Below are positions 723-33,662 of a DNA stretch of 64,000 nt, in pieces. A model generated the notes under the pieces. The model was given only the letters and a program-made list of their open reading frames with translations, searched no databases and was not told the origin of the DNA. The position numbers and the translations under genes were made by a program. Source of the stretch: Cyanophora paradoxa CCMP329 (Eukaryota; Plantae; Glaucophyta); assembly GCA_004431415.1 (NCBI GenBank), contig QPMI01000050.1:1-64000 (forward strand), read 5' to 3'. Every line of letters begins with the position of its first letter. Within the stretch, counting starts at the first letter, position 1.

Positions 723-725
723 ACT

Positions 726-2422: not shown

Positions 2423-2471
2423 TGCTTCTTTTACTAAGAAGGAAAGAAAAATAATGCGAAATATGCATTTA

Positions 2472-8842: not shown

Positions 8843-8885
8843 GGCTTTTACTATATGGATTTATAAAATTCCTGATAAGTAAAAG

Positions 8886-11361: not shown

Positions 11362-11390
11362 TTTAATATATAAATATAGATAAAAGAAGA

Positions 11391-12400: not shown

Positions 12401-12453
12401 ATTAAGGATCATTGGTAGATTTTTTATGTTGCAGTATAATAAAAGAGAATATA

Positions 12454-13820: not shown

Positions 13821-13879
13821 ACCATATTCAGTCTCCCTGCATTATTTTTATCTGTCTTTATTTAGGAAGATCTACAACA

Positions 13880-14662
13880 ATGCAAGATTTAGAAGAGTTT
13901 AATGTTTCTGAAATGATAAAAGGTGTTTTCAGAGCCATTTTTATAGGCAAAAGTTGTACGGGAAAAAGCGAATGTGTAAAGTATTGGTTAAAGCAATTAC
14001 ATGATGCCAAAGTTATTGATGTTGTCCTAGTTGTGAGTGGGACCAGCTTTAATCATTTCTGGAGAGAGGTTGCAACAGTAGAACTTGGTAAATGGGATGC
14101 TGGTTACATTTCAAAGCTTTTGGATGAAAGGCAGGAGAAAATCGAAAAAGGTGAACCTGTGAACCACATGTGTGTTGTTTTAGATGATTTAATTGATAAT
14201 GAGATAGTCGATCTCACAAGGGATAAAATAATCGGATCCTTGTATTCCAGAGGTCGCCATTCGAAAATATCCATTATCTGCATTACACAGAAACTCAGAA
14301 AAGTCTCTTCCACTATTCGAGTTAATTCTGATTATGCTGTTTTCCTAAGTGCTGCTAATCGCAAAGAACTTGAAGCCATAGAGGAAGAATACAATATAAT
14401 GCGAAATAAAGAGGATTTCTACAAGATGTTTGAAGAGTATGTTCACTCCTATCAGTATATCGTTTGGTCCTCTGCTGGCTACTCAGTTAAATACTTTGTT
14501 GATAAAGCGGACCTTGTGAAAGATTTCCCATTCCCTCGCTTCCACAGGAAGCCCAAAAAGAAAGAAGATGAGCTGAAACCCCCAGAGAAAGAGGAAGCCC
14601 CCAAAGAAGTGAAGAGCCAAGTCCATAGCAATAAATTGATGCGATATAAACGCGGTTTATAA
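13880..14662 (+). CDS. A32-like (FtsK/HerA) DNA packaging ATPase
   Basis: Walker A GKSCTGKS, Walker B VVLDDL, family motif SRGRH followed by ICITQ. Confidence 0.93.
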   Translation: MQDLEEFNVSEMIKGVFRAIFIGKSCTGKSECVKYWLKQLHDAKVIDVVLVVSGTSFNHFWREVATVELGKWDAGYISKLLDERQEKIEKGEPVNHMCVVLDDLIDNEIVDLTRDKIIGSLYSRGRHSKISIICITQKLRKVSSTIRVNSDYAVFLSAANRKELEAIEEEYNIMRNKEDFYKMFEEYVHSYQYIVWSSAGYSVKYFVDKADLVKDFPFPRFHRKPKKKEDELKPPEKEEAPKEVKSQVHSNKLMRYKRGL

Positions 14663-14690
14663 AATTATCTCTCATTCTAATAAAGATACA

Positions 14691-15425
14691 ATGCCTCCCA
14701 AACGAAAGATAGGGATCCCAGCTGGGGCTGTTGGCTATTCAGGTGGTGGAAACAGTGGATCTATTAACACTGAACCAATGAAATTCAATGGTATGAACGA
14801 AATCAAACCCTCACAACCCCAAGAAGACCCCCTTAATGCTGCCTATGAGGAATCAGTCGATGACAAAGCCCCACAAAGTTCAACTGCTGACCAACTGAAC
14901 ATTTCCCCTGAGACAGCAAAGATGAAGTCTGTTGCTGAGGGTGCCAGGCGAATTATTGGTGCTGCTGATGATAAAGGTTTAGGCTTGCAAGATCTGTCAT
15001 TGGCTCGCAAAGGTGAAGGTCTTAGTAAGGAATCAGACAAGGTTATTCAGTCTATGGCTGGTGAAGTCACATACAAGACTGCTCCCACTCAAAATATTCA
15101 TCGAATTCCCAAGGCTCAATGGGATGAGATGACTGCTAAACTCAAAGATCTGGAAGCCAAATCCAGTGCTTTGGAGCAGTATGTTACTGAGAAGAAAGAG
15201 AGAGCCAAGCTAAAGGAGATGCTTCGAAAGGAAGTTTATAAAATGGGTATTACTGGTGTCCCAGATAAACAGTTTATTGCTAAGAAAGAGAACCAAATCG
15301 ATGAGCAGGCAGTAGATGAAATGAAAACAAAAACCCAAAAGGGAACCATTGAACCTGGTGCCACCAAAGCTGAAGTAGAAAAGGGAGTTGCCCCAACAGT
15401 ATATAAAAGACGAGTTTGGCTTTAA
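14691..15425 (+). CDS. Hypothetical Lys/Glu-rich viral protein
   Basis: Intact 244-aa ORF packed 28 bp after the ATPase; no recognised motif. Confidence 0.7.
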   Translation: MPPKRKIGIPAGAVGYSGGGNSGSINTEPMKFNGMNEIKPSQPQEDPLNAAYEESVDDKAPQSSTADQLNISPETAKMKSVAEGARRIIGAADDKGLGLQDLSLARKGEGLSKESDKVIQSMAGEVTYKTAPTQNIHRIPKAQWDEMTAKLKDLEAKSSALEQYVTEKKERAKLKEMLRKEVYKMGITGVPDKQFIAKKENQIDEQAVDEMKTKTQKGTIEPGATKAEVEKGVAPTVYKRRVWL

Positions 15426-15447
15426 TTATCTCTGTTTTATTAGAGAT

Positions 15448-15720
15448 ATGGACATAATACGAAAGTTCTTCGAGATGTTCAGTCTGCATGTGGTGAGCAA
15501 TTGCCACAGTGGATGTTGTGAGACAACAGTGGAGTTTGAGATGTCAGATAATGAGGATAATGCCTCAGAAGCAAGAGAAAGAAGGAGGTCTACAGTTTCT
15601 GTGGAGTCAATGCCAGCAGAACCCACAGAGTATACATATGAGCAACAGGAGTATCCAAGGAGAAGTTCTCTGCCAGCAGAAAACGTTTTCTCTGGGAATA
15701 TAAATGGAGGATACTATTAG
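15448..15720 (+). CDS. Small hypothetical viral protein
   Basis: In-frame ATG 15448 within ORF 15388-15720; fits the gene packing. Confidence 0.5.
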   Translation: MDIIRKFFEMFSLHVVSNCHSGCCETTVEFEMSDNEDNASEARERRRSTVSVESMPAEPTEYTYEQQEYPRRSSLPAENVFSGNINGGYY

Positions 15721-15949
15721 TTTAATCGAGTTTACCAGTGATGAACCTGTTACTGAGGGTACTATAAGACACATTCTAGCAATGCAGAAACGATATAGAG
15801 AGGACCCAGCATATAGAGAGTATAAGAAGCAGCAAGCCCTAGCATCCTATTATCGCAGAAAAGCCCAAAAAGAGGAGCAGAGACCCAGAGGAAGACCGAT
15901 TAAATATTATTTGCCAACTGAAAGTAGCAATGGACCCCCAGGTCTATAA
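15704..15949 (+). CDS. Small basic protein with AT-hook-like RPRGRP
   Basis: KRYREDPAYREYKK..RPRGRPIK; similar to ORFs at 19027 and 26970. Confidence 0.6.
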   Translation: MEDTISLIEFTSDEPVTEGTIRHILAMQKRYREDPAYREYKKQQALASYYRRKAQKEEQRPRGRPIKYYLPTESSNGPPGL

Positions 15950-16036
15950 GAAAATTGAGAAAAAGCGGTCTCAGTATGCTACTGAGGCAGCTATAAAAAT
16001 ATATACAAAGGAATTGGCTTTATACTTGCAATCAAG

Positions 16037-16258
16037 TCACAGATAACTTTTGTAAATATGCTTTTGTTGTTTTTTGTTTGCATTCTCAGACACTGAAACA
16101 GTTATGTGAATGTTTACTGATCTATTTCTCTTTGGTTTTGCTGCATACATATTGTAACCTATCAATCTCTGTGACATTTCGATATATGCTCCAATATCTC
16201 CATGCTTAATGCATTTATCTAACTCACTCATGGTCATCTCATCAAGAGTCTTTGCCAT
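16037..16258 (-). CDS. Small hypothetical viral protein
   Basis: ATG 16258 (MAKTLDEM) in ORF 16037-16306. Confidence 0.4.
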   Translation of the reverse strand: MAKTLDEMTMSELDKCIKHGDIGAYIEMSQRLIGYNMYAAKPKRNRSVNIHITVSVSENANKKQQKHIYKSYL

Positions 16259-16325
16259 TTTGTCTTCACTATACACAATCAAGTAAGCCTTAAGTATTCT
16301 TGTCAAATTTTGGTCTTTTCCGATA

Positions 16326-16428
16326 GGTGTGACAGGTGTGACAGGTGTGACAGGTCTATCCCATCGATTTTGAAGATCAACTTTTCACCAGGGCTTTCCT
16401 TGGGATGGACCTGTCACACCTGTCACAC
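16326..16428. other. Inverted-iteron element copy 1 (putative replication origin)
   Basis: (GGTGTGACA)x3 GGTCTATCCC - 39-bp spacer - GGGATGGACC (TGTCACACC)x2, the last unit one base short; 60 bp downstream of the primase-helicase stop. The structure is seen directly; the function is inferred. Confidence 0.6.
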
Positions 16429-16487
16429 AAACCATTTTCAGTAAGGCTATAAAAATATATGTAAATCTCAATCATTAATCGTTTTCT

Positions 16488-18814
16488 TTAATATTCGGCA
16501 TCATCTTCATTGTCTTCCTGAACCCTTGTTATCTTTCGAATCCCAATATATCCTCTGGCTAGAATTCCATTAACTCGTTTTCTTTCTGATTTTACATTGA
16601 AGATCTCCCTTACTCTTTTCATAACAGATACACATTCAACTTTATCATCAACACTTTTGTATGATTTGTAAATGATATCACTGGAAACAAAGTCGTTAGC
16701 ATTATGTGTAACCTCGAAATTATCTCGAAGCCATTCACCAATCTTGTCATTTTCAGCTATAAAGTTAATTCCCTGTTCAATAATCGATTGAGGGGACTTC
16801 TTAAGATCTCTTCAACCTCTTTGTTCTTCCACATATCCAGTAATATCTTCATGTGAGCCATCTTATACTCATCATCATTGTGAAGAAGTGTGAACAGAGT
16901 TGGATCAGCTTTCTTCTGACCAGCTTCTGGCTTCTCTCTGAATATATTATTGAATCTCTGATAGGAAAGTCTTCTTTGAATTGCAAAGTCTGGTTTATTT
17001 ATAGTCAAATTGTCATTAGTTGTAATGTAGACCTGAAACATTGGGGTAAGGATAACTGGGTCTTTGAACAAGGCTCTCACAGTCATTTCATTTCCACCTG
17101 TGACCTCCTTAATCTTGGAGATCTGCAGTTTATCACCATCTTCAGCCTCATTACTGAATACAAGTCGCTTTCCAAGGAGTTTGGCAAGTTCAGGAGTAGC
17201 CTCTGATGAGTTCTTTTTAGGCTTAGTCCAATAGGATATTTCGAGAGGGCTGTAATAACGACCAGATATCTGTTTGCAGTATTCCTGAACAAGTGATTTA
17301 CCATTAGCACCAGCACCAGTCCACATATAGAACTTCTGGGATTTAGTTGATCCACTAAGGGCAATTGCAATGGATGCCAGAAGATACTTTCGCTCTGCTG
17401 GATCATCCACAATCTCTTTATAAATCTGATTGAGATGCTCTATTTTCTTGGGGTCTACATTTTCAGTATAGTCATAACCCACAGTCTTGCTCACCATATC
17501 TTCCAGTTTACCCTTTCTGAAAGTCATAGTGGTCAGATCAAATACACCATTTTCGAATCCAATCACATATGGAACTGTGTCAATCTTCTCAAAGAATTCA
17601 TCATCATTCAGCAGTGGGACCAAGTCAGTCAGAAGGGATTTGCGAAATCCTGATTGTTTAAGATTTTTGGCAATGGTCATCAATGTTTTGGATCTTTCTT
17701 CGAAAGCTGCTTTGTTTTCCTCATCCTTTAAAGCTCTTTGACTATAATGCACAGCCCTTCCAAGGTATTGGGGGACAACAAGACGGCTTATATCTAGGTA
17801 AATCTTTAGGTTTGTGTCATCATGCTCCCAAATCCCAGTATCAGTATTGAGTTTGAACCATGACTTTTTGGAGTATCTCCATGTATGTTTAAGAACCTCT
17901 TTGCATACTAAACTCACATCATAATGAGCGCCACCAGAACCAGCGGATTTATCTATAAGATTGAAGATATCAGATTGCATTCCAATGCAGATGAATCGTT
18001 TTTTGCAATTTCCACTGTAGCTTGACACAATGTATTTGTTATCATCTCCTTTAGCTTTCATAACATACCAGTTATTCGATTCATGTGAACCATTGCAGCA
18101 TGGGCAATTGAGTCCCTTGTTAGCAGCATCAAAGTTAAAGCCAAGTTCAGTTTTAGAGATTATATTGGGATGCATAAATCCCATATCCACCAGCTCTTTG
18201 ATAATATTGTTTTCCAGTTCATCATGTGAGGTAGCATTAGCAGTATACTCACTCTTATAGATGTAGTTATCTATTATCCACTTTTTGAAGTCATCAGTAG
18301 GCTCATTGAAATCACAGGTATCATCCCATGGGGAGATTACCCAAGCCTTGTTCACACTGGGACACACATTGATCAGTCCAGAAGTTCCAGTTCCAGTGAT
18401 TGTTTTCAGGTCAACCTTCTCAAAGCCTTTAAAGCCAGGAGCCTTATCGGTAATTTTGAGTTTATTGAACTCCTCAGGTCGTTTAAAGTAGACATGATAG
18501 CCTTTTTTAGTTTTTGCCATGGGCTGATTGGCATCAAAGTCATCAGGAAACATATCCCGGAATTTCTCAAAGTCCTCCTCATCATCAAAGTCAATAACCA
18601 TCATGTTGTCTGAGAGCAGAATGCCCCAAGATACATACTGATTAGTTGCCAGCGCTTCCTCATACTTTTCCCAGGACCATGCACCTCCCTTATGCTTGAA
18701 AACAGGGTCTTTGCTGTCAGGTTTCACTGGGATAATCATGTTTTTGGACAGTTCCTCATCAGATCTGAGCCAGTTAGCGAGCGATTTGAGCGATTTAGTC
18801 TGTTTGGCGTTCAT
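16488..18814 (-). CDS. Primase-polymerase / D5-like SF3 helicase fusion (frameshift near 16,795 before C-terminal domain)
   Basis: N-terminal Prim-Pol motifs VIDFDD and TKKGYHVYF, Zn finger CPCC..H..C, D5_N IGFENGVFDL, Walker A GAGANGKS, Walker B FSNE, IQRRL. Frame-corrected tail ..DKIGEWLRDNF..ARGYIGIR..AEY* ends at 16488. Confidence 0.92.
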
Positions 18815-18835
18815 TTTCAGCGATCGGGGTCCCTT

Positions 18836-18870
18836 TTATATATATAGAAGATTTTTCTTTAAGTAGTTTT
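18836..18870 (-). promoter_or_regulatory. Conserved upstream motif (minus strand AAAACTACTTAAAGAAA-ATCTTCTATATATA)
   Basis: Near-identical copy at 20161-20195 and a variant at 19299-19332. Each lies immediately upstream of a minus-strand gene start. Confidence 0.7.
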
Positions 18871-19026
18871 GGGTCCCCCAATCATTTTTTGTTGGAAATC
18901 GAGAAAGTATCCCTACGAAATTTATCCACATGATATATCGAGTGGTTTAGATACAAAAAGGATGAATGGGTATTTCAGCGAATAAACAGCATATCCCCAG
19001 CCTAGTAATATGCTGGGAAAAATAAT

Positions 19027-19281
19027 TTAGACATGTTTCAATTTTCTCCCTCTATTTGAGTAAGGGACATCATACAAATACTTGACAAAGCAGACTGCAT
19101 TGGCTGCATACTTTCGCTGACATGAACTTGCTATTTTCATTGCTCTATAGGTATCATCGGTTTGATATAGATCTCTAAGCTGTGTGGCTATTTTTTCGTT
19201 AAACTTTTTGATTTGAGCCTTACCTTTTTCAGTTTGCTGGTATCTCTTCATAGCTCTCTTCTGGGCTTCACTGAGTGGCAT
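19027..19281 (-). CDS. Small basic helical protein
   Basis: MPLSEAQKRAMKRYQQTEKGK..LYQTDDTYRAMK; preceded by the conserved upstream motif. Confidence 0.65.
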   Translation of the reverse strand: MPLSEAQKRAMKRYQQTEKGKAQIKKFNEKIATQLRDLYQTDDTYRAMKIASSCQRKYAANAVCFVKYLYDVPYSNRGRKLKHV

Positions 19282-19298
19282 TTTTCCTCTGTCTCTCT

Positions 19299-19332
19299 TA
19301 ATATATATAGAGAATTCTTTAAATCATTTTTT
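19299..19332 (-). promoter_or_regulatory. Conserved upstream motif, variant copy
   Basis: atatatatagagaattctttaaatcatttt on the + strand, upstream of ATG 19281. Confidence 0.55.
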
Positions 19333-19337
19333 GTTCT

Positions 19338-20153
19338 CTAACCTCTTTGTCCAAATCGCTCAATATACATAAGTTTGAAATGCTTACCTAGCAATGCTAC
19401 AAATGGTTCGATTTCCAAGGTCTCCCATGTTTTCTTGTCCTTATTCCATCTGCAATCTAATCCTTTTGCGATATCTTTTTTAAGATAAGGCACCTGAAAC
19501 CCAGCAACCAATGTATTTGTTGTACTGAGTTCTGCATACATTTCAATCAATGCAGATCTGCCCTCTCTGAACCTCTCTATATCATCTCTGCGAAGATTAT
19601 CCATTTTCGGAATAAATTGGTTGCACCAAATCAGGAAAAGATTAACTGCATGTTTATTCCTTGCTCTTTCTTGTTCTAATTCTCTCTCTCTTCGCTCTCT
19701 TTCTTCTAATTCAAGCTGCCTCTTTCGAGCTTCCTCTTGTTTTTCAAGTTCTCTTTTTCTTTCCAGTTCTTCTTGCTTTAAAGCGATTCTGCACTTATTA
19801 CAGAAATTATCCTTTCGGTTTTTATGCCGATCTCCACATCTTTCACATATATCTTGACCTCTGGCACCCTTCGGAATAAATCGTAAAATGCAGCAATTCC
19901 CAACAATGACCACAATCTTTTTATTAACATGCAGAATATAGCATTGCTCTTTAATTGGATGATCACAGGCGCAATGCTCAGACTCTGGAGGCAGGTCATA
20001 GTCACTTAATCCATATTTTGCAAGCTTTGCCCAAAGAGGGAGCGGTTTCCTGTTACTTCCAAGAGCAACATAATCATTGAAGTTATCAGATCCACAAAGC
20101 AACATTAAAGCCGCTTTGAGCTTTTCCAGGCAATACGATTTCTTCTCTGCCAT
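19338..20153 (-). CDS. Cys-rich viral protein with coiled coil and C-terminal DUF5710-like domain
   Basis: CACDHPI..CYI..VGNCCI.RF and CxxC..CxxC, an E/R coiled coil, then VPYLKKDIAKGLDCRWNKDKKTW. Confidence 0.65.
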   Translation of the reverse strand: MAEKKSYCLEKLKAALMLLCGSDNFNDYVALGSNRKPLPLWAKLAKYGLSDYDLPPESEHCACDHPIKEQCYILHVNKKIVVIVGNCCILRFIPKGARGQDICERCGDRHKNRKDNFCNKCRIALKQEELERKRELEKQEEARKRQLELEERERRERELEQERARNKHAVNLFLIWCNQFIPKMDNLRRDDIERFREGRSALIEMYAELSTTNTLVAGFQVPYLKKDIAKGLDCRWNKDKKTWETLEIEPFVALLGKHFKLMYIERFGQRG

Positions 20154-20160
20154 TGTCCTT

Positions 20161-20195
20161 TTATATATATAGAAGATATTTCTTTAAGTAGTTTT
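20161..20195 (-). promoter_or_regulatory. Conserved upstream motif
   Basis: tatatatatagaagatatttctttaagtagtttt on the + strand, upstream of ATG 20153 and between divergent genes. Confidence 0.7.
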
Positions 20196-20262
20196 CATCA
20201 AATTTTGTGTTCAGAATTCCCCATTTAAAACCTCCCCTTTTAGTAGGAACAAGTTAGGAACT

Positions 20263-23200
20263 ATGCCCCGAATTAGCAACAGACTCATTAGAGAGAAGAA
20301 ATGGGAACTTATGGGATTACTGGGAACACTGTATGCAGCCCATGAAATCACAGAGGCTGAATATGACCGGGAAATCGGATTTATTTCAAGGGGCAGACCC
20401 ACTTTAGCAAAATTAACCAGAAAAGCCAATAACCTCTATGACAAAGTTGAGACTCTTGATGAACTCGATCGCCTGAGGCAAATAGAACCAGAGGCAGAAG
20501 ATGGAACAGCCATGAATGAATTATATCGCTGGCTCACATACAGAGCCAGAAGGGAAGTTGTGGTAGATGTGATTGAATATTTAGATAGAATTGCAACCTC
20601 TCTACCAAAACGTTTAAGAGATAGTCTGGATCAATTCAGGGCAATCAAAGTTCGCTTGTCGTTTATCTGCAAGTTCGTAAAAGTCAGCAATCCACAGGTT
20701 TGGATATCGAAATACATTTACAGCGATTATTTTGTATTAACCAAATCGAGAAATATTCGAACTGAGCTGAATAAAGCAGCCCAAATGTGTCAGGAACAGA
20801 TGAATGTTGTTGATAGCTATCGATTGGAGAGAATCGAAATGCTAAGAGTTGCTATTATGAGTTATGCCCAACTGGTGGCTGCTATGTTAAAACACCAGAA
20901 TCAATTGCAGCCAAGAGAGCCACAGTGAATATTCGAAATATTGATGATTCTTGCTTTGAAAATGCCATTTTGGCATGGATCCATAGGAAAGATGTAAATT
21001 CCCACAAGAGAAGTGAGCTTACACAATATCGCAAATGGAAATACTCACCAACCACATACAATCCTTTGGCTCTCAATTTCGACAATATCCCATTCCCTGT
21101 TCCTTGTGATGCTGAAATCATTGATAAATTCGAATCTCAAAATGCAGGCATCAGCATAAACATATTTGGAATGGATGGAGATGTTATATATCCCCTACAT
21201 CAATCCAGCAACCCAGGCAGAAAGCAAAAGATTAATCTAATGCTCATTCATGATGATGAAGGGAATGGTCACTATATTACTATCATGTCCCTTTCAAGAC
21301 TTCTCAGAGTTGCCCTTGATAAAACCAAGGATCAAAAGTTACACTACTGTGATACATGCTTATCTCGATTCAGGTCTGAGGCTAAACTCACTGCTCATGT
21401 GGACTCAAACAGATGCATTGATTGGAGACTCTCAAAGGGAATCACCCCTAAGCCTGACACCACAATAGAGTTTGGACTGAAAAACCTCAGGAAAACTGTC
21501 TGGCTTCCTGTTGTGGTTTACTGCAAGATTGAACATAGAAGCATCCCCATTGATGCATCGAAATCCAAGAGGGAAGTCTCAGCAGTCAACATTAGAATAG
21601 TCACTGGGGCAGATGTTCAGGAGTTTCGATTTGAGGGTCAGGATCCAATGGGAGGTCTGTTTGAATGCTTGGAGTCCAAAGCAAGAGAGCTAATCGATTT
21701 CCTGTTCACCAATATTCCCATGAATGAACTCACAGATGAGCAAAAGGCTATTTACAGAGCTACCAAACACTGTTACCTTTGCAGTGAGAGGTTCACCAAG
21801 GAAAACTTCAAATGCAGGGATCATGATCACCACACAGGTAATTACATTGCACCTGCATGCAGAAACTGCAATCTCCATAGGAGAATCTCAAAGCAAACCA
21901 AAGTTGCAGTTGTTGTTGACCAAATGGATGACTGTGGGACATTCATTTTCAGAAAAATAGCAGGCATGGGTGATAAAAAGCGAATCGAAATCCTTTCGAA
22001 AAACTTTGATCAATACCTTTCATTGCAATGGGGTCTTTACAAGTTCATTGATGCAAGTAATTTTATGGACTTTGGGGCTGCTGATGTAGATGAGTTAATG
22101 AGCAAATTCCAGGCTTTCAGAAGGCTTTCACACTCAGTATATGGATTGGACCCAGTTCATTATGTATCTGCACCTGGGTTATCTTGGGATGCTATGCTTA
22201 GGACCACCAAGGCAAAAATAGAGCTTATAAGTGATGTAGAGCAATACGAATTTGTTGAGAGGGGAATCAGGGGTGGCTTTGCAACAATGCCTTGTAGGTA
22301 TGCTGAGGCTGATGGTGAAAACTCCCATATAATGCTGTTTGATGCTAACAACTTGTATGGCTACTGTTTGAGTCAGCCAATTCCAGTTGGTGATTTTAGA
22401 TGGGAGACCGAATTCAACCCACAAGATAACAGATCCAGTTTCCTAGAAGTTGATCTGGATTACCCAATTAGGCTGTTTCTAGATCACAGTGATTTCCCCC
22501 TAATTATTAACAAGAAAATAGTAGAATATGCAGAATTATCACAATATCAAAAGAGCCTATTAGATCTCTCAGGAGAAGAGCTTGATAAGACCCCTAAGCT
22601 AACTGCAACCTTTGGTTCTGTGACCAACTATGTGATTTCTGAGCCTCTTCTGCAATATCTGTTGGACAAAGGGGTGAAATTAAAGAAAGTTCACAGGGTC
22701 CTATCATTTACTGTGGCTCCTGTAATGAAACCCTATATTGAGCTGAATACTGACATGAGAAGGAAAGCAGTGAATAAATTCGAGGCTGATTTCTATAAAC
22801 TCATGAATAACTCAATCTATGGGAAATGCATTGAATCTTGCAGAGGTAGATCTGTGGTTAAGATTGCAAACAGTGAGAAACTGTTTATGAAATATGCAGC
22901 CTCCCCATTGGTGAAATCAACAAGTCCCATAAACGAAAAAGCAGTTGCCTTTGAGTTTTACACAAAGCATGTGAAGCTAGATAAGCCAGTTGCTATTGGG
23001 GCTTATGTTCTGGATGCAGCCAAACTGCATAACTACAAGTTCTTCTATGATACTGTAAGGTCCCAATGGACAAAAGCAAAGTTACTATTCCATGATACTG
23101 ACTCCTTTTGTCTATATATCGAATCTAAGACCCTACAAAAAGATATAGAGAATATATCCTATGCATTAGACCTTGGAGGTGATTCCAGAATGACCCAGGT

Positions 23201-23506
23201 AAATACAAAAATGAAATGCCTGGCTCTGCTATATTGGAGTATGTGGGTCTGAGAGCAAAAGTTTACAGTTTCAGAACTGCTGAGATTGAGAGGAGTAAGC
23301 TCTCTGGGACTTCCACTGAGGAACTCCAATTTAATGATTTTAAGCAGTGTTTATTTGCAGGTATCAGCAAGACTGTGACTGCAAAGCAGAAAAGAAGGGC
23401 AGATCACACAATAATAGACACTGTGAGTAGAAGGGTTGCCCTAAACTGCTTTGATGCAAAGAGATACATCTTACCAGATGGTATTAATTCTGTTCCTTTT
23501 AATTAA
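20263..23506 (+). CDS. Protein-primed family B DNA polymerase 1 (Polinton type; exonuclease degenerate; frameshifts near 20,870 and 23,190)
   Basis: Polymerase motifs LFDANNLYG, KLMNNSIYGK, HDTDSF and LRAKVY. N-terminal NIRNIDDSCF..GHYITI region and an embedded EndoVII-like CYLC..DHDHHTG..ACRNCN. Confidence 0.93.
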
Positions 23507-23509
23507 GAG

Positions 23510-24895
23510 ATGCCAGCAACTGGAAGAATAGTTAGGAGAACCACTGAGCAACTGCAAGGAAACCTACTGCCCATCACAGTTCCAAAGGAGGAAAAGGGGG
23601 AATCTCGAATTGTAAAAAAGTCTGAAATGAAAGAGCTTGTCCCAGTAGAGATTCCAGTTGCTATTGCAGTGAAAGAAACAAGCAAGATTGCCAAGAGATT
23701 CTATGATGTGAGAACTGGTTACAAAGGGCTTCAAGCTATGAGGGCTGAGTTACCAGATGAATCCTATAAGCAGTTGCAAGAGTTCTATAAAAAACAAGAG
23801 GTAGTTCAGATCAATGCACCTGCTATATCTAGGAAGAGAGATCCCATGGTCCCAATTAGGCAACCCCTTGATACCTATGTGATTGATTTGCTCTTTTTCC
23901 CAGCTTATAAGAAACAAAACAATGGCTATGATACCTTTATGACTGCAATGGAATCTACACTGAGAACTGGGTATATCATACCTATAAGGGATAAATCAGC
24001 TCTCACTACATTAGCTGCATTTAAACAGCTTGAAATGAGAGTAGCAAGACCCATAGTAAAAGTTCAATCAGATGCTGGGAGTGAATTCCAAAATCGAATA
24101 TTCCAGGAGTATTTATCTAGTAAATTCATAGAACACCAAGTGAGTGGAACTGCTGACCATAGAAGCCAAGGTCGAATTGAAGCCTTTAACAAGCAGATTA
24201 AGAGACTGATCACAAACTATTGCATAGCTAATAACACAGCTAGATTCTTTGATGTGTTAGGTGATATTGAGTATAATTACAATAATACAGTTCACTCAGC
24301 TACTAAGATGAAGCCAGGCGAAACTACAGAGGAGCATTATAGGTATATAGTGGGATTAGAAGATGAAAGATTCAAGAAATCAATAGCTTACCTTGATACC
24401 ATGCAGCCTGGCATGTTTGTTAGAGTGAAAGTTGAGAAGAACCCCTTTGCTAAACAGGGTAACAATTGGTCTAGGATGGTTTACACTGTTGATAGTAGGG
24501 AAGGCTTTAAGTTTAAGCTAAGGAGTCCCACTGGTGAGATCATAGAAAACAGGTTTGCTTTCCATGAGCTGTTGCCTGTGAATGCAGTTGAATATCTAGA
24601 AACCCCTACAGTGGATGCCTTGGAGCAAGCTAAAGAGGAAGCCAGGGCTGATGCTGCTATAAGGAGAGAAGGCATAGAAGCTGCTAATGAAGTCCCAGAT
24701 AAGCCTTTGATAGAGGCTAGAAAGGAGAAGGCTGGGAAAGTTAACAGGGAACTCAAAAAGCTCACTATAGCAGGGACACAGAAACTTTCTGAGGTTAATA
24801 GCCAGAGATGGTATAATGACTTTCAGACTACTAAGGAGTCATATACAGCCCCTAAACCTCAGAGAACACTAAGAGAAAGGACCAAAACTAGCTAG
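23510..24895 (+). CDS. Retroviral-type (rve) DDE integrase, Polinton-like
   Basis: YVIDL (D), QSDAGSEF (D), RIEAFNKQIK (E), YNNTVHSATKMKP, FAKQGNNWS. Confidence 0.93.
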   Translation: MPATGRIVRRTTEQLQGNLLPITVPKEEKGESRIVKKSEMKELVPVEIPVAIAVKETSKIAKRFYDVRTGYKGLQAMRAELPDESYKQLQEFYKKQEVVQINAPAISRKRDPMVPIRQPLDTYVIDLLFFPAYKKQNNGYDTFMTAMESTLRTGYIIPIRDKSALTTLAAFKQLEMRVARPIVKVQSDAGSEFQNRIFQEYLSSKFIEHQVSGTADHRSQGRIEAFNKQIKRLITNYCIANNTARFFDVLGDIEYNYNNTVHSATKMKPGETTEEHYRYIVGLEDERFKKSIAYLDTMQPGMFVRVKVEKNPFAKQGNNWSRMVYTVDSREGFKFKLRSPTGEIIENRFAFHELLPVNAVEYLETPTVDALEQAKEEARADAAIRREGIEAANEVPDKPLIEARKEKAGKVNRELKKLTIAGTQKLSEVNSQRWYNDFQTTKESYTAPKPQRTLRERTKTS

Positions 24896-26037
24896 TTTGC
24901 TAGGCAAAAACTCGTTTTTTCCAAATATATGTATGACTGATATACATATATGCACATGATATACACATAGTCTTGTAGATCTTCTCAAGCGCTTCACAGC
25001 GATATGCAGAACGTTGCGTTTTGATGATCTGGTGATGAGATATAACAGTTTGAAGATGAAAAAGTCACTTGCCATAGTAGACTTGGTGAGACACTAGCTC
25101 AGGAATCGACTTGACTGAAAAGCGTTTTTGGCTCAGCGGTTAAGACGCTTGGATTTCCGAGTCGCAGTTCAAATCCGCTCGGGAACCTTTACTTCGTTCG
25201 CCGTGAAACTTGAAAAGTAAAAAAAAAACGCGGTTTTTTCTAGATTAATGCTGTACCCGTCTGGAAAATCAATATTCACGTTTGCTGCGATATCTCAACA
25301 CCAACTTATCAAATCGATGCGCTTTAAACGTCATAAAATCGAGCATTTCAAGGCGGTCTGAGCGCTTATCAGCCATATCGACATTTCGATAACCCTGACT
25401 CGAAATCGCGATGAAACCGATTTTGAATTTTGATTTTAAATTCGATTAAAATGCATTAAACGTGAGTTTTTAATATAGATCACCAGGAAGTTATCAAATC
25501 GATGCACTGGCGGTAAAATATAATCACATATATAATACATAACAATAACTTGCAATCACATATACGAATCTCGATGTGTATACATCGCTATTATGATTAA
25601 AGCGAGTTTTGAAATTCAAAATAATTAGATTAAATTCGATTATAACTCAAAAATCGCGATTTTTAACCATATACTTATCGTTTCGATCAAATTATGATAT
25701 CGAATAATCAACTATATTATAATGCTTCGATAAACGTGATCACATATATGAAAACATCAATCTAACATTGCATGTAGTAAGCATCTCCCCTTGATTCCCC
25801 CTATTATATTATATTTATATTTAAGTGGACTCAAGGTTGACTCATATTAATCGTAAAAGTAGTAATAGTATATGGATTTTGTTACGAATTCAATGCAAGG
25901 GTTGACTAAGTGGGTTGAGTTGACTCAAATTTCACAGGAAATAACAATGAATCAGAGTATAAATGCATTTTTGAATCAACTACACCAACTAACACTGAGA
26001 TTTTAACAATGAATGAGGTCCTTACTGAATATGGTAT

Positions 26038-26140
26038 GTGTGACAGGTGTGACAGGTCTATCCCGTGGATTTTCAAAATCAATTTCTCACTAGGACTTTC
26101 CTTGGGATGGACCTGTCACACCTGTCACACCTGTCACACC
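26038..26140. other. Inverted-iteron element copy 2 (putative replication origin)
   Basis: (GGTGTGACA)x2, the first unit one base short, GGTCTATCCC - 39-bp spacer - GGGATGGACC (TGTCACACC)x3; same orientation as copy 1. Confidence 0.6.
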
Positions 26141-26391
26141 CAATTATTTCAAAAATCCTAAGGGTCCCCCCTTAGAATCATTAAAACATGATAAAAACAT
26201 ATAAGTTTCATGTATAATTACGATTGGATTCAATAAGAGATCGATTTGTTTTATTTAACAAATGAATCATTTTTTACAAAATATGAAAATATCGAAAAGA
26301 ATACAAAATAATCGAAATAAATGAATATTCGATAAGATATACACAGATTATCGATTGATTGAAATAGAATATACGAGATATATCAACAAAA

Positions 26392-26892
26392 TCAATTAAG
26401 ATTAAGCCGAGGGTTAAAACTCCGCATTTTACTATGTGTCTCTTCACCAAATGCATTGTGTGCTGTTTCAATGTACGCCTTCAAAATCGCAGGCAAGCGT
26501 GAGAGGAAATGTGGTGATCCGCGTGCTTCTGTGTCAGCTCGGATAAGTGCTCGCAATGTCCTAGCGAACCTGTCAATAATTCCAAGTTTGTTACCTTTAG
26601 AAATGTGGTCATCTTTGGTAACATCAGTGTGCATTTTCAACGAGTTCTCTTCGGCCATTGCCCGAATTGCTGCTGTGTTAAAACCGTTGTCGGCGGAGAA
26701 ACCCCAGATCCCTGGTAGCTCCGCGATCATTTTTGGAAGTTGTTTGAATGTTTCTATTTTTCGCACGATAGCGAAACGGGTTGCAATCTCGACCGCTGCA
26801 AACAGACGATACCTACCAATAAATAATACATCAATTTGCCAGACACCCGGTGGAGCTGTTATCGTGTACATTCTTCTAATTGTCACACACAT
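26392..26892 (-). CDS. Minimal rve integrase core (~160 aa)
   Basis: WQIDVLF, VEIATRFA, SADNGF, GIIDRFARTLR and AYIETAHNA align to the rve core. Start at ATG 26892 or 26871. Confidence 0.75.
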   Translation of the reverse strand: MCVTIRRMYTITAPPGVWQIDVLFIGRYRLFAAVEIATRFAIVRKIETFKQLPKMIAELPGIWGFSADNGFNTAAIRAMAEENSLKMHTDVTKDDHISKGNKLGIIDRFARTLRALIRADTEARGSPHFLSRLPAILKAYIETAHNAFGEETHSKMRSFNPRLNLN

Positions 26893-26969
26893 AAAAAGTT
26901 TTTGGTGGATATCGCGTGAATATGCCTTAAAAAGATTGTGATTATGATTAATAATAAAGTGATATTGTA

Positions 26970-27260
26970 ATGGAGGCGGAAAACTGTTTGGCACGCAAGC
27001 GTGGTCGTCCTCCAAAGTCTATGTCTCCGGAAGTAATAGAAGAGATGAAGAAGAATCGATCAGCAGCGGTAAAAGCTCGTTATCATTCAGATGAGGAATT
27101 TCGTAAGCGCAAACTACAAGCGACGTATGAATATCAGGAAAGAAATATTGAACGTAAAAGGGAACAATGTCGTAATTATAGACGTCGGCAAAGACAATTG
27201 CTTCTAACTTTATTGGAAAAGTTTGGTGCTCAATCGGTTGAGGTAGTTTCAGCAGCCTAA
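26970..27260 (+). CDS. Small basic AT-hook protein
   Basis: RKRGRPPK, then KARYHSDEEFRKRK..RNYRRRQR. Confidence 0.7.
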   Translation: MEAENCLARKRGRPPKSMSPEVIEEMKKNRSAAVKARYHSDEEFRKRKLQATYEYQERNIERKREQCRNYRRRQRQLLLTLLEKFGAQSVEVVSAA

Positions 27261-27290
27261 TGTTTGGAGGTTCGCTGCAAACTTCTTTTT

Positions 27291-30200
27291 TCAAATACGA
27301 GTGCGACAATGTCCAAGCGCCATTGTTTCTACGCCATTATCGCAAAGCCAGCGTTTTGTATCTAGCGAATGTAGTGCCTGTTTTGAGGTTTCTTGCACAT
27401 AAACACGATGTTTCTTTGAGCGCATACCTCGAATTCCATTCACTTCACATGATAAGTATAGTTTCTGTCCATCTACAACTTTACCAAGAACACAATCAAT
27501 ATATCTTTCCCGTGTAAGCTGGTCGGCAAAGCTTTTAGAAATCCCTTGCATCGACGCTCTTGCTTACCACTGTCGATCTGATACCAATAACTCTTAGGTC
27601 TGTTCGCGATGAATTCTACCATTTGCTTACCATTGCACTCATCTTTGAAATTGCCAAGGGCTGTCGATTCTTTCTTCATGGTGGCAATTTCTTCGTCCGA
27701 CATTCCTGCAAAGAATCGATGTGACTCCGGATATTTGCTAACATCTAAAAGGTGACTTATATTTTTCAGATCAGCGTACAAATCATCTGTCTCAATTCTA
27801 AGGATTAGCGAGTCAGTATCCGTTGCAAGCAATTTAACACGCGGACCCCAGAGCGGTTTTAGTTGCTCGTAATACATTTTAAACATGTGTAGTTTTGACA
27901 TTTCCAAAACACTGAATCCACTGTATATCGGTTTGTTTAATTTGACTTGTGAACGCCGTTTAGAGATAAATACAAGATCCTCATCATATTTGACAATTTG
28001 CTTCAATAAATTTGGTTGTGCGGCAATTTTTGACAGTCTGACACTATCAGTCACAAGCTCCGCATCGCAATGCTTTCTCACGTTTTCCATATTTTTGCCG
28101 TATAATGCATTAGTCTTGAGTTTGAATAGATCTCGCACATGATCAAAGGTTGCGGCCTGACGCATTTCGGCATTTTTTCCACATACGGTTTCATCCAAGC
28201 AGTCTGCTTGTACGTAATAACACGATGAATTTTACTCACCACAAAACCTTGACTTCTGTAAAATTTGAGTAGTCTCCCATCAACAACATATTTCTTCAAT
28301 GGAAGCAGACTTGGAATAAGCTTTCGCGTCTTCATCTGAATGCAATCCTTTTTAATCATATCCTGTTGTGATCTAGATAGCATCGTTGGATCTACAATCA
28401 TTGATACTGGCGCAATCGGGTAATCATTAAATTTCTCGTGAAGCTCATCTGGAATGTAAGCATCAATTTCAAGCGTTGCTCCTATATCACCGTCATAATC
28501 GAAACCATCATGGTCAAAGGTTTCTGGATCAACCCATTTAAAATCTCCAATCGGATGTTTCTCTAACATCGCATATCCATACAACGAATTTGCATCTATA
28601 TAGTACAGATATACTGATGGTTTGGATGGATCATAATCAACCATGTCCTTATTGTTCGCTTTTGCATATCGATTTGACACCATTGAAATACCACCACGAA
28701 TACCTGTCTCGAAGAATCTGAACATATCCTCTTGACCCTCATGCAACAGCTGTAATTGCCCACCTGTATATTTTAGAGCAGCATCCCAACTAAAGCCTGG
28801 TAGTGACATGTAATATGCAGGATCTATGCCATCTGTAGCGCGAGATGTTTCCCGATACGCTTGAAACACATCTGATAGTAACGTTATATCAAGTTTCATA
28901 TAAGCAATCGTGTAATCTAACATTGTCTTACATTTCAGCTTTTTCCAAACCTTCTGTGCGTGCTCATAATCTTCAAGCTTGCACTTTTCGTTTTTCAAGT
29001 CATTGTGAAACGCCTCTATCGGAGGTAGCTTACGGTCTGCAAGCCGCTGCCAGGAATTTACGTAGCTGTAGGGATAGATGCCCTTTCTTGTCATCAAATT
29101 AAACGTTTCCGCATCGGGACATAACTCGCGAGTTTGCTTTTTCAGTTCATCTGGAAGCGATGCCGCTAGCTTTTCGAGCGTTGCTGATAGATGTTGCATG
29201 CTGTCGCGGAATACGTAAATGCCGTACTCAATTTGACTCATTTTCTCGGAGTTTTGGAACATCACTTCGAAACGATTTGAAAGCGGTGTCTCAGATCTCT
29301 CGAATTTGATTTTTTCTTTAACAAGCTGGTTCTTGATAAATCCTGGAACTCGTTTCTCATACTCCTCAGCATTTATGCTCAGTTTGTTCATCGTCCATTC
29401 CCTCACGCTTTGATTTTGATATGTCTTCTCAAGTCGTGTTCGGACTGATCCAAGTTTTCAATCAACTTTTTCTTAAATTCAATATGTGCGGCATGTCTAC
29501 GAACACTTCCCTTTGCAATTGCGCGGATCAGCAAATGCGAATCAAATCCTCGAGCATTGTGAGCAATCAAGAAAACACGTTTTGATTTGAATCTTCTACG
29601 GTTGCAGCCAGGACAAGCAGCACCTTTGAAATCACCATTATCGTGATCGTGGTCCCAAACCTTTTTGATCTTCTCGCTGAATTCAACGTTACAGATATAG
29701 CAACTAGTAGCTGAATCAAACGTTTGCTTTGCAACATCTGTTTTTATCGCTGGTACCGATGCATTTAGCCCTTTCTTTAAAGTTGGTTCCATTGAATCTA
29801 GCCATTCAACAAACCTCTCCTCACATCTACGTCCGCTATTTACGTGCCAATATTTTGTATCATCATTGCCTGTGATCAAACATCCAACAGCAGCTGGTAT
29901 TTGACATGCAATTTCCTCTGTCTTTCCATTTTTCACAGAGTTCGTAGACATTGCAAGTGTTTCAAAATCATAGGCTCCAACATATCGTGCCGTTATCGTA
30001 TTCGCATGGTTCAGGAATTTCAATGTTGAACGGTCGGGTTTTGGAAGCACATCACGGCCATGTTCGTCTCGTTCGAGGCATCTGTCTTCTTCGATGTGTT
30101 TCTGAAGAGCATCATCACCGCGAAATCCTTTTTGACAAGCGAGACAATAGCTGCGTGCGTTCTTGTCAATTCCAGGACGAGAAAACATTCGACTCACGTT

Positions 30201-31331
30201 CTTGATCCAAACGAAGTGGCCATAACTACCTTCGCCAGTCACGAATAGCAGAGGAATAGCATCTCGAGCCGCTGAAATATAATATGGAGTGATATCTAGC
30301 TTTTCATTATCAGCCACATACACGCATAGCTTCAGATTGTTTGCCTCTTCAAACCGACGGAATATCTTTGAATCAAGCGGGACAGGATAACTGAGCATTG
30401 ATGTGTTGATCGTACTTAGGTGCTCTCTGTACTTGGCAGCACGTTGAGCATGCCGATCGACTGGGAACTTTGCGGATAAAACTGAATACGTAAAACACAT
30501 ATTATCTGGTGCCTCCACGTTTATGACTGCGTTCTTCTTGCTAATCCATGATGGAAGTTCAAATGATGCGCCACCAACGGCGCGGACATGTTCTAGACTT
30601 TGTATGTAAAAATACGTCCACGTTTCTAACTCCCAGCTGTCATTCTCCTGTTCAGCTCTTCCATCGATCTCAACACATCTGTCACGCAGCTCAACTTCAA
30701 TGTTTGCACCGGGGAGGATACGGTAGAATTGATCTTCACTGATTTCATCTGTTTTGAAGCGGTTAGTAAAACCTTCTGTGCCATTCTGCCTATGCTTAAA
30801 AATACCTTTTGCATATACCTTTATAGATAGCCCCATTCGTGTTTCATTCGCCGCAGTCAATCGCTCAGTTATGAAACGCTCAAATTTTGCTTTGAAATCT
30901 GGGGTGTTCGCCATGTACGACGCGAGCGATGTAACTCTTAGACCGTTCGGCCTGATGATCGCAGCGCTTTCGAGTGCGTATATTCCATCTAGTGCCGTCT
31001 CGCGTGAACCATCTCCAGCAAGTTCCTCATTTGGCTGTCCAGGGAGTTCATTGAAAAGTGCTACCAGTTCAGCTTGGTTCTCAGCGATGATTATCTGCAC
31101 AGTTCGCTCTGAGGCACGTCTCGTTTGTCCGACTACAGCAGCGAGCATTGAAAGCACATCAACAGTTCGTTGCAGCGTCACAAGTCGAGTTCGAGATCCT
31201 GGTGATGAGATTCGGAGTAATTTGTTTCGATATAGTCCATGAATACGTCTACGCTCATACAAAGTTTGTGCTAGACCTACGATCTGTTGTTTTAATAACG
31301 CTATCTGACGACGACGAGCAAATTGATTCAT
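27291..31331 (-). CDS. Protein-primed family B DNA polymerase 2 (exonuclease intact; three single-base frameshifts)
   Basis: ExoI YDFET, ExoII HNARGFDSH, RKGIYPYSY, ExoIII YMKLD. Polymerase motifs YIDANSLYG, KLKTNALYGK, ATDTDSL, RPKSY. EndoVII-like insert. Frames join near 29,405, 28,175 and 27,545. Confidence 0.93.
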
Positions 31332-31449
31332 TTTGAAAGTGTCGCTAGAAATAAATTTCGGTTGATCAGCGCGATCTCTTATATCATTTTATATTGTTGC
31401 TGAAACCTCTAAGACATAGTTATAACCTGAACCTAAACTTGGACTACGT

Positions 31450-32270
31450 CATCGGTGGGAATAATTAGCGTCTAGCTAGAACCTGAACTCGAGTATGTAA
31501 TTAGATTCCGATGATATAGTAATTACGTGTAGCATAACCCTTGAAACCTCTTTGTTTTTTAGATTCGAAATACACACAATTAACGTCTAAATGATGTTGA
31601 AGATGATTCTGAGACCGGCGCTTTGGGGGTCCGCCTCAAATCATTGCTATATCTTTTGCAAGATCGATCGGTCTAGACGTTGGATATTACCTAGCGGTTG
31701 CTGTTTGGAAGGAGAGGTAGACCAGAGGGAGAGGAAGGTGGTAGACGTAAGGAGAGAGTGGACGGAAGTGGTGGTTGGGAAGGCGTTGGAGTGGGTGGGT
31801 TGGGGTGGGTTTGGAGGAGTGAGGGTGAGAAAGAGGGGGGTGGGCTGGCACCCCCACTATCTCATTTCGAAATACACACAATTAACGTCTAGAATTGAGC
31901 TAAACGTGTTTCCTCTGTTAGCTTCATTGTACTCATTAATATCGTCTAGAATTGAGCTAAACATGTTTTCTCTGTTAGATTCAAAGTACACAAAATTAAC
32001 GTCTAGCTGTATCTGAAGATTATTCTGAGACCGGCGCTTTGGGGGTCCGCCTAAAATCACTGCTATATCTTTTGCAAATCGATCGGACTAGACGTTAGAT
32101 ACTACCTAGCGGTTGCTGGATGGTTGGTTTGGAGAGGTTGTGGTGGTAGACGTAACGAAGGGATGGAAGAGAATGTGTGTTGGAAGGCGTTGGAGTGTGT
32201 GGGTTGGGGTGGTTTGGAGGAGTGAGGGTGAGAAAGAGGTGGGTGGGCTGGAACCCCCACTATCTCATTT
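31450..32270. repeat. Terminal region: two tandem ~416-bp units, each with three ~57-bp subrepeats plus a G-rich block ending CCCCCACTATCT
   Basis: cgtcta-like anchors at 31469/31526/31584 and 31886/31943/32000. The block ctgagaccggcgctttgggggtccgcct occurs twice. Confidence 0.85.
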
Positions 32271-33662
32271 TTTTCTTATGCTTTATTGGACTTCCTTGTA
32301 TATTCAAATAACGAGTTTCCCTTTCGTTCTCTTTCGGTTGCGCATTAGAAATTTACCTTCGGTTTGGGCGTATGCGCACGCGTTTCTCTCTTGATCATGA
32401 GCTTAATGTTGATCATGAATCTGCTTCTCTGCGGAATCGTTGTATTTGTGTACGTGCGATCTTGTATAATTTCACTACCTACGACGGGAGGGCCCCCCGA
32501 CTCCGGGATCCCCCTGCCGTGGTTTGACTGGTCACGACTGTTTTGAATGACGTGACTCATGGCGTCGACTAGCCTGGCAGAGCTAGCTGGGCGCCCCGGC
32601 GGGCCTCCTGGGCGCCCCGAAGCCTTGAAGGACGAGGCGGCGGCGGCCCGCGGGCCGGCCGCCGCCGCGCCGGGGCGCGGCCCCAGTACTTGTCCGACGG
32701 TCCTTGGGGCCCGTAGACGCGCGCCCCCTCCGCGCAGTCCGACGGTCGCGCGGCGCTCGAGTGAGCGGGGGCTTCTTTTCATTCCGAATTATCTTGCAAT
32801 TGAATTTAAAACTTGAAAGAAGACCTGAGCTTGCAATTGGGCTTCATGATCAACTTGCACTTGGCAGTTGCAAGGTCTCAGAGTCTACTAGGCTAAGCTT
32901 AAACTTGCCGCAGCGCCGCGAGCTGAACGGTTGCGAGCCGTCGTAATCATGATCGATATCCGATGATCATGAGTCACTGAGTCACTGAGTCATGCATCTG
33001 AATCAAATCCCGGAGTCCCGCCGTGCACGTGGCCCAGCCTGGCCCCGGGCAGTGGCATTCGATGATCCGTCATGAGCGTCTACACCGTGGCGCCGCCATG
33101 CTGCCCGGGCCGGGCAAGATGCGCAGGGCTTTTCAAGTTTGAGGCTTGGGCGAGGATATCCTCAATATTTAACTCATTGAGCGAAAAGACAGGTCATCAT
33201 CAGATACACAGAGAGCGCGCGCTACAGACTGCCGAGATGAAACTCGCTGCGGTGGGCATTTCTACGGATGTTACAGCGCCGGGCCTCTCCCCGAGGCCGG
33301 CGTCTAAAGACGCAGTTCACGGACTGCTACTACTGCTCAGGCCTGGCCTAAAATGCTGCGTGTTCGAATTCCTGGTCCTCTGCGCGAAGCATTTTTGTAC
33401 AAGCTAGCAACGCAAGTGCTACACAAGCTGAAAGATCAAACGACGATCATTAAACTAAAATCCGATCTGGGCCCCAGGAAAGTTCTTTCTCAATTTCCTA
33501 AGCGGGAAAAAGCGAGAGAGCGGGAGATAGAGGAGGAAGAAGAGAGAGAGAGAAAAAAAGCTCAAGGGGGCGCTCGGCCGGCGGCCGGGCCCGGGGCGGA
33601 GCCGGCAGCCGAGCAAGCAAGCTGGCGGGCGCGCGGGCAAGCAGGCGGCGGCGCCGCCGCGT

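Follow-up and report, generated by a model that had tools for sequence, protein, structure and literature searches.

A predicted replication origin shared by two distantly related Polinton-like modules in Cyanophora paradoxa

Is a second replication and integration module, fused to a virus-like element in the genome of the glaucophyte Cyanophora paradoxa, a satellite of that element or the remnant of another one? The question is raised by the first 64,000 nucleotides of contig QPMI01000050.1 (strain CCMP329, assembly GCA_004431415.1), referred to here as the window. Virus-like DNA of 35-45% GC spans bases 1 to ~32.3 kb of the window and falls into two modules. Module A, a Polinton-like virus (PLV), carries a capsid candidate, a packaging ATPase, a primase-helicase, a protein-primed DNA polymerase (pPolB1), and an integrase (integrase 1). 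Module B, from ~25.0 to 32.3 kb, carries a second polymerase (pPolB2), a second integrase (integrase 2), and a copy of an origin-like element of A. A preliminary description of the locus considered B to be a satellite that uses the helicase and the capsid of A. A and B are found here to be separate lineages with distantly related polymerases. That two unrelated Polinton-like elements are stacked at one site, with B a remnant that captured an A-type origin, appears about evenly balanced for and against; for B itself, a remnant with one end, or an outer arm, is the most likely reading, ahead of a working satellite.

The element shared by the two modules is 93 bp long. The preliminary description had reported an iteron element copied in B, and this was correct: the copies at 16336-16428 and 26038-26130 are 91% identical (E 1e-31). 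The element consists of three plus two opposed 9-bp repeats flanking a 37-bp spacer (15/37 G+C, about 41% GC, similar to the whole element), and it folds with a z-score of about -8, none of 200 shuffles being as good. In A it lies directly downstream of the primase-helicase gene, which is not so for the B copy. The features concerned are these:

16326-16428, no strand: predicted origin of A, with opposed repeats, 60 bp from the helicase stop
26038-26140, no strand: B copy of the predicted origin, with outer arms and flank inverted relative to A and the inner spacer direct
25886-26220, no strand: CpG-poor, A-like island within the CpG-rich non-coding DNA of B, with one CpG in 336 bp
16488-18814, minus strand: Prim-Pol plus D5/SF3 (superfamily 3) primase-helicase of A, final ~100 codons in another frame (Pfam Prim-Pol, D5_N, DUF5906)

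The helicase open reading frame (ORF) has an apparent stop at 16757. A profile of 16 relatives, built with the window protein left out, places the final domain in the following frame (E 2e-8 over profile positions 756-848), and the gene is therefore taken to end at 16488. The element probably functions as a replication origin, a role that is well supported by analogy with known origins of this layout. Replication of A would then likely begin internally, with the primase-helicase loaded onto the opposed repeats that follow its stop codon, in the manner of Staphylococcus aureus pathogenicity islands (SaPIs) and P4. The copy in B could be fired only by an A-type helicase. Chance or simple repeats as the source of the two copies were ruled out, because the non-repeat spacer is identical at 30 of 37 positions. 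The element was also compared with known RNAs; Rfam microRNA matches reached 25-35 bits versus cut-offs of 100 and reflect the hairpin alone.

The two copies are not simply collinear. The spacer of A matches that of B at 30/37 positions in the direct sense versus 12/37 in the inverted sense. For the helicase-side flank the order is reversed (16/20 inverted versus 8/20 direct), and the repeat numbers match in the inverted sense too. In other words, the core was flipped between its arms in one lineage, because spacer and surroundings match in opposite senses. The flipped core is a sign of crossing-over between the inverted arms of the origin.

How did an A-type origin come to lie in B? The DNA around the B copy offers an indication. 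The 336-bp island is the widest such CpG-poor span in B, and none of 200 shuffles reached its length (maximum 264 bp); its bounds were chosen post hoc, a choice that shuffling all of B accounts for. Outside the repeat arms the island contains no CpG, where about 6 would be expected; observed-to-expected (o/e) CpG ratios in the non-coding DNA on either side are 2.1 and 3.4. Since the island is A-like in CpG and contains the flipped core, the B copy was likely captured by recombination, as a patch of ~0.34 kb of A-type origin DNA, and the CpG signature points to a likely transfer from A-type DNA into B. The island does not align with the A flanks beyond about 40 bp, which suggests that the donor was a sibling of A. 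The transfer appears recent because DNA identity is 81-91% here versus none in the genes. The captured origin would allow the A helicase to fire inside B. A resemblance by eye to a helicase 3' remnant left of the B origin was not significant (P 0.13-0.5). A cluster of GTTGAC/GACTC repeats also lies left of the B copy, at the island edge (25826-25930), and is possibly a second binding array.

The contrast in CpG usage that the preliminary description had noticed extends over both modules. The CpG o/e is 0.26 (16757-24895) and 0.32 (1-16300) in A and 1.14 in B (26392-31331), with a change point at 24894-24999. Silent sites of A have lost CpG and those of B have not: NNC codons stand before G in 20/316 cases in A versus 38/141 in B, and NCG codons number 23/884 versus 74/321. 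An excess of CAG/CTG accompanies the loss (1.58 in A versus 1.03 in B). This would be the pattern expected after long exposure to CpG deamination under selection. Post-mortem decay is an unlikely cause, since the loss is concentrated at silent sites within long open frames; the ORFs used for this argument were picked for being open, and stop counts within them carry no information. Across related viral contigs the CpG o/e varies from 0.14 to 1.04, and the CpG level is therefore regarded as a lineage trait. The fourfold contrast between A and B thus argues against a long shared mutational environment. Within A (1-24990) the loss depends on context (ACG/CGT 0.12, CCG/CGG 0.21, GCG/CGC 0.28, TCG/CGA 0.58). 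Two features mark the boundary:

24894-25120, no strand: A/B junction zone and likely right end of A; CpG change point at 24894-24999, with 24896-25110 intermediate (o/e 0.79)
25121-25240, plus strand: Pol III-type boxes A and B, plus a closing stem and T6; no tRNA; 1 match versus 0.01 expected

For the second of these, ARAGORN found no tRNA, Rfam no family, and the fold was no better than shuffles. Candidate identities are a small viral RNA gene, a relic like a short interspersed element (SINE), and an integration target. A looser form of the box pattern had 2 matches in 399 kb of related loci.

Further evidence of separate lineages comes from the polymerases and integrases. The two sets are arranged as follows:

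20263-23506, plus strand: pPolB1 in three overlapping frames (Pfam DNA_pol_B_2)
23510-24895, plus strand: rve integrase 1, full length, 461 amino acids (aa); weak rve match (E 3e-4, below the Pfam cut-off)
26392-26916, minus strand: integrase 2, catalytic core alone, first ATG at 26892, 166 aa; weak rve match (E 3e-3, below the Pfam cut-off)
27291-31331, minus strand: pPolB2, full length in four pieces (Pfam DNA_pol_B_2), exonuclease and polymerase motifs kept

With X placed at the frame breaks to allow reading through, pPolB1 and pPolB2 share 23-28% identity (25-36% in individual pieces), and each is nearer to outside proteins (35-37% identity) than to the other. This identity, together with the absence of DNA similarity between the genes, rules out a recent duplication of the A replicon. 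A 58-row FastTree leaves both polymerases unplaced; in a quick tree of 18 rows, pPolB1 joins P0001 and L047 at 98, and pPolB2 falls outside this group. Integrase 1 and integrase 2 gave no significant match in direct comparison (E 0.06), and both match one integrase family.

Two polymerases and two rve integrases thus face each other, in agreement with the preliminary description, which had also called the second set complete. It is not complete, because integrase 2 lacks both terminal domains. Described earlier as a mini-integrase, it is indeed a member of the rve family, reduced to the catalytic core: its match to the family profile (369 positions) runs from 44 to 218, and the three acidic residues fall in columns that are invariant or nearly so. 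The rest of the profile was not found in any of six frames at 24900-27300, so that a mere frameshift was ruled out, the C-terminal part being in no frame. Among the related loci L023-L071, 30 of 31 single-ORF integrases closed at both ends reach profile position 275 or beyond; ten loci whose ORFs are cut, split, or fragmentary are not counted, and some loci are near-duplicates. Of the 150 best protein matches, 87 are at least 300 aa long.

The three genes of B cover 4857 of 7281 bp, the third gene and the right end being:

26970-27260, plus strand: 96-aa basic protein with an AT-hook-like motif; weak (Pfam E 0.05, Atlas 0.90)
31551-32270, no strand: two direct repeats of ~310 bp (82%) with a period of ~410 bp, the likely terminal region of B; GC rises beyond

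The 96-aa protein was previously named an AT-hook protein; its basic character stands, and the AT-hook is a weak lead. It has no detectable relationship to an 81-aa ORF of A. As stated earlier for B, no capsid, ATPase, or helicase gene was found in it: profiles and six frames gave no helicase, and the capsid and ATPase proteins of A were without a match. No terminal inverted repeats of B were found between 24896-26020 and 31332-33300, where the best left-versus-right score of 24 was equaled in 38 of 60 shuffles. The terminal repeat region also has no inverted partner in the left part of B or in bases 1-1700.

Could B nevertheless be a true capsid-less satellite of A-type viruses, one that captured a helper origin, was amplified in trans, was packaged in the helper capsid, and inserted beside its helper, its left end either missing or of a kind other than an inverted repeat? 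This is unlikely. Parts of the earlier proposal stand, namely the separate lineage, the absence of capsid, ATPase, and helicase from 7.3 kb, and a recently shared A-type origin on a foreign CpG-poor island. The size of B resembles that of transpovirons, and capsid-less pPolB elements exist (complete ones without virion genes are noted in PMC13215967). The missing inverted ends, the integrase without its outer domains, and CpG profiles that oppose long co-residence with A do not agree with it. Furthermore, the exact origin pattern had no matches in metagenome contigs (searched with the inner arm) or in genome and viral contigs (searched as the opposed arrangement). Also against B as a satellite, it is established that a protein-primed polymerase normally starts at the termini and needs no internal origin. 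A more elaborate form of the idea is quite improbable: B would be amplified by the D5 primase-helicase of its helper and carried by the helper capsid, with the proofreading pPolB2 complementing pPolB1 and integrase 1 complementing integrase 2. If true, A and B would form a bipartite replicon whose parts depend on each other, one level beneath the parasites of giant viruses. A truncated arm of another element, or the capture of a new replicon, fits at least as well as a satellite.

Two metagenome contigs bear on the same question. L060 (1-11632) and L061 (1-16677) carry the same integrase family and are very AT-rich; besides tandem repeats and a full integrase they contain an ORF of 1200-1300 aa. 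They are candidates for capsid-less elements, since no capsid or ATPase match was found among the 3 and 5 ORFs scanned, and to that extent they favor a satellite. Their full-length integrases and the absence of inverted ends and of an origin-type repeat point the other way. Members of the integrase 2 family occur at 25 metagenome loci, mostly on short contigs. In relatives, pPolB-integrase cassettes often lie near contig ends, which are 86-490 bp past the integrase ORF in L024, L025, L032, L036, L045, and L050; this layout matches both the right end of A and the layout of B. In L050 and L052, a pPolB is followed by a 382-aa integrase near the contig end, and a tail-type gene is present. The combination of a pPolB, a core-only integrase, and an origin as in B was repeated in no locus examined. 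Scans of metagenome, genome, and viral contigs returned no stand-alone B-like element and no close copy of B; viral contigs scanned with pPolB2 and with the helicase as single proteins gave no match, nor did a longer-protein search with the N-terminal piece of pPolB2. A search of phage proteins returned distant primase-helicases only. One further 9.8-kb contig, L044 (1-9821), has inverted ends of ~500 bp (86%) and heavily broken Maverick-like genes.

Relatives also inform the predicted origin. The exact 19-base pattern of its repeats matched 22 viral contigs (L001-L022). In 11 of these loci a Pfam-confirmed primase-helicase gene has the array at or within its 3' end, and the primase-helicases ending in the GTGTGACAG array are of several unrelated types (D5, VapE, RepA-type, and NrS-1-type). 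A twelfth locus, L015, shares the layout of L005 and is a candidate for the same arrangement. Eight arrays lie inside other ORFs, several of them Val-Thr-Pro or Val-Thr-Gly repeats, and two are unexplained. Against the generality of the motif, only one of the 79 loci that contain the closest helicase relatives has a tandem GTCAC-type array. These loci are mostly on large, giant-virus-sized contigs, and none matched other A proteins.

The state of the two polymerases raises another possibility, that A and B form one working genome of at least 32 kb. Here B would have been gained as a new terminal replicon, with pPolB2 replacing an exonuclease-dead pPolB1, integrase 1 performing integration, and the second origin a by-product of joining. 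Aligned with six full-length relatives, pPolB2 retains all three exonuclease motifs. pPolB1 keeps its polymerase motifs, its ExoI and ExoII are altered, and ~100 residues up to ExoIII are missing; the altered and shortened domain lies at about 21500-22100 (plus strand). pPolB1 is for these reasons predicted to lack proofreading. The defects of the modules are thus complementary, a whole integrase 1 standing beside a cut integrase 2. Terminal-style repeats occur at the B end only, and single elements with a second replicase are on record. This reading is nonetheless doubtful: bases 1-1700 remain A-type and match neither end, the sharp CpG step means that any fusion was recent, and integrase 1 would probably need to accept the end sequence of B.

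It is very unlikely that the junction is an assembly artefact that joined two multi-copy viral elements. The viral ORFs do show many frame breaks, as in poorly polished repeats: three in pPolB2, one in the helicase, and one observed and one inferred in pPolB1, whose first piece (20263-20928) is joined to the others by overlap alone. Apparent lesions in such elements have also gone unconfirmed by re-sequencing (Hackl et al., PMC8547959). However, no shared repeat is present at the junction to mislead an assembler, and the origin copies, being 9% diverged and rearranged, are not one collapsed sequence. Even with a false junction, the sharing of the origin would stay real.

The stacking of two unrelated elements, with B as a remnant, is consistent with the divergence of the polymerases, the CpG contrast at silent sites, the absence of inverted ends, the cut integrase 2, and the island with its flipped core. 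It is also consistent with the presence of virion genes in relatives: among 23 viral loci whose polymerases are of the pPolB2 type, 13 have an A32 ATPase or a capsid protein according to Pfam scans of 76 selected ORFs (flanks up to 10 kb), a figure biased upward because IMG/VR favors virion-gene contigs. A would integrate via its full-length rve integrase and replicate with a polymerase that probably does not proofread. The other arm of B and any capsid genes would lie left of the window, with A nested in B, or would have been deleted. B is predicted to be unable to excise or replicate as a unit, because no second end is present in the window and its integrase is without outer domains. The locus would then be a snapshot of the accretion-and-deletion route of replicon exchange proposed for these viruses; that its stacked elements were caught amid replicon turnover is a judgement with roughly equal weight on either side.

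Besides the database bias, several points weigh against this stacking. Of the pPolB trees, as envisaged in the preliminary description, the 18-row one separates the polymerases as described above, although an approximately unbiased (AU) test leaves their sisterhood unrejected (p-AU 0.28). The 336-bp patch is neatly centered on the origin and looks selected, not random, as would suit a satellite or working chimera, and the 7.3 kb of B is of transpoviron size. The short integrase 2 may be native, as its three acidic residues are kept and B-type non-coding DNA follows. No helicase remnant is detectable beside the B origin, though a simply truncated A-like virus might leave one. Finally, the left end of A lies beyond the window, so that nesting is not visible.

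Module A has two hallmarks of a PLV, an A32-type packaging ATPase and a replicase plus integrase; its remaining features are:

12454-13820, plus strand: major capsid protein candidate in two frames (nearest Atlas clusters)
13880-14662, plus strand: A32-type packaging ATPase (Pfam Pox_A32, E 1e-11)
18832-18870, minus strand: TATA-containing promoter-like sequence, 39 bp; second copy at 20157-20195, 38/39 identical
19027-20153, minus strand: two accessory ORFs of A, 84-aa basic and 271-aa Cys-rich; weak DUF5710 match

In the Atlas, the capsid candidate is nearest to viral clusters (0.98) and to Capsid_NCLDV/Capsid_N clusters (0.96-0.97); its recognition score is low, Pfam gives no match, and a single-sequence structure model with a predicted local distance difference test (pLDDT) value of only 33 was uninformative. 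The two TATA copies sit upstream of the helicase and of the 271-aa ORF, and a similar TATATATA stretch precedes the 84-aa ORF. A patatin-like phospholipase fused to an F5/8 type C domain is encoded at 8879-10441 (plus strand). Among tail-like genes there is an internal duplication of 860 bp (84%; 4450-5308 and 5763-6613), with shorter repeats and many frame breaks too. GC climbs to the host level by about 32.5-33.5 kb, and host sequence of 68% GC starts at ~33.5 kb. It encodes sestrin, with short GT-AG intron candidates that suggest a protist, as well as KTI12, TruB, DnaJ-C11, and guanylate kinase. The guanylate kinase sequence (61975-63723) occurs more than once, and a 100-bp repeat is present at 62038 and 62912.

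The locus touches two questions, how replication starts in PLVs with a D5 primase-helicase and how replication modules are swapped. It offers a concrete predicted origin in a eukaryotic PLV, with a repeat motif common to the ends of primase-helicase genes in other viral contigs, and the natural second copy in an unrelated pPolB cassette makes helper-dependence testable. If B were a true independent satellite, it would be a PLV parasite that borrows a helicase as well as a capsid, a case not found described in the literature search.

How does the locus compare with known systems? Tandem integration, elements with a second replicase, and the entry of transpoviron-like pPolB plus DDE modules into PLVs are reported by Barth, Ha, and Aylward (bioRxiv 10.64898/2026.10.13.758929), who propose that mosaicism arises by accretion and deletion; the Halocafeteria elements (bioRxiv 10.64898/2026.07.28.741278) add to the tandem, nested, and multi-replicase cases. 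In these reports on polisuviruses, no pair of divergent pPolB-rve sets with a common internal origin, no compositionally foreign origin island, and no flipped core was found described. A PLV satellite sharing the internal origin of its helper did not come up in the literature search; figures and supplements of the preprints may show comparable cases, among them Figure 6 of Barth et al. with its palindromes and small arrays of repeats. PLVs in tandem, nested, or with a double replicase have thus been described before, and what is new is the origin island and its flipped core.

Transpovirons are linear elements of ~7 kb, with terminal inverted repeats and an SF1 (superfamily 1) helicase that in classical members is fused to an inactivated polymerase (PMC5499653). 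B is like them in size and in lacking virion genes. In the broad usage of Barth et al. they have a pPolB and a DDE integrase; in B the polymerase is full length and the integrase a core only. B is unlike the classical members in its Polinton-type pPolB with intact motifs, its lack of a helicase, and the absence of inverted ends in the window. The origins of SaPIs have opposed iterons downstream of a primase-helicase gene (bioRxiv 10.64898/2026.10.17.759575), and those of the wider group of phage-inducible chromosomal islands (PICIs) and P4-type satellites likewise have opposed short repeats just 3' of a primase-SF3 helicase gene, as in A. Those origins contain a long AT-rich tract, whereas the spacer here is short. 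SaPI/PICI and P4-type satellites also encode their own primase-helicase, of which none was found in six frames of B, and borrow the capsid only; B would borrow the helicase too. Defective-interfering or origin-retaining satellites are non-autonomous DNAs that keep the origin of a helper for replication in trans and are derived from that helper. B differs from them in that it comes from an unrelated element and has a polymerase of its own.

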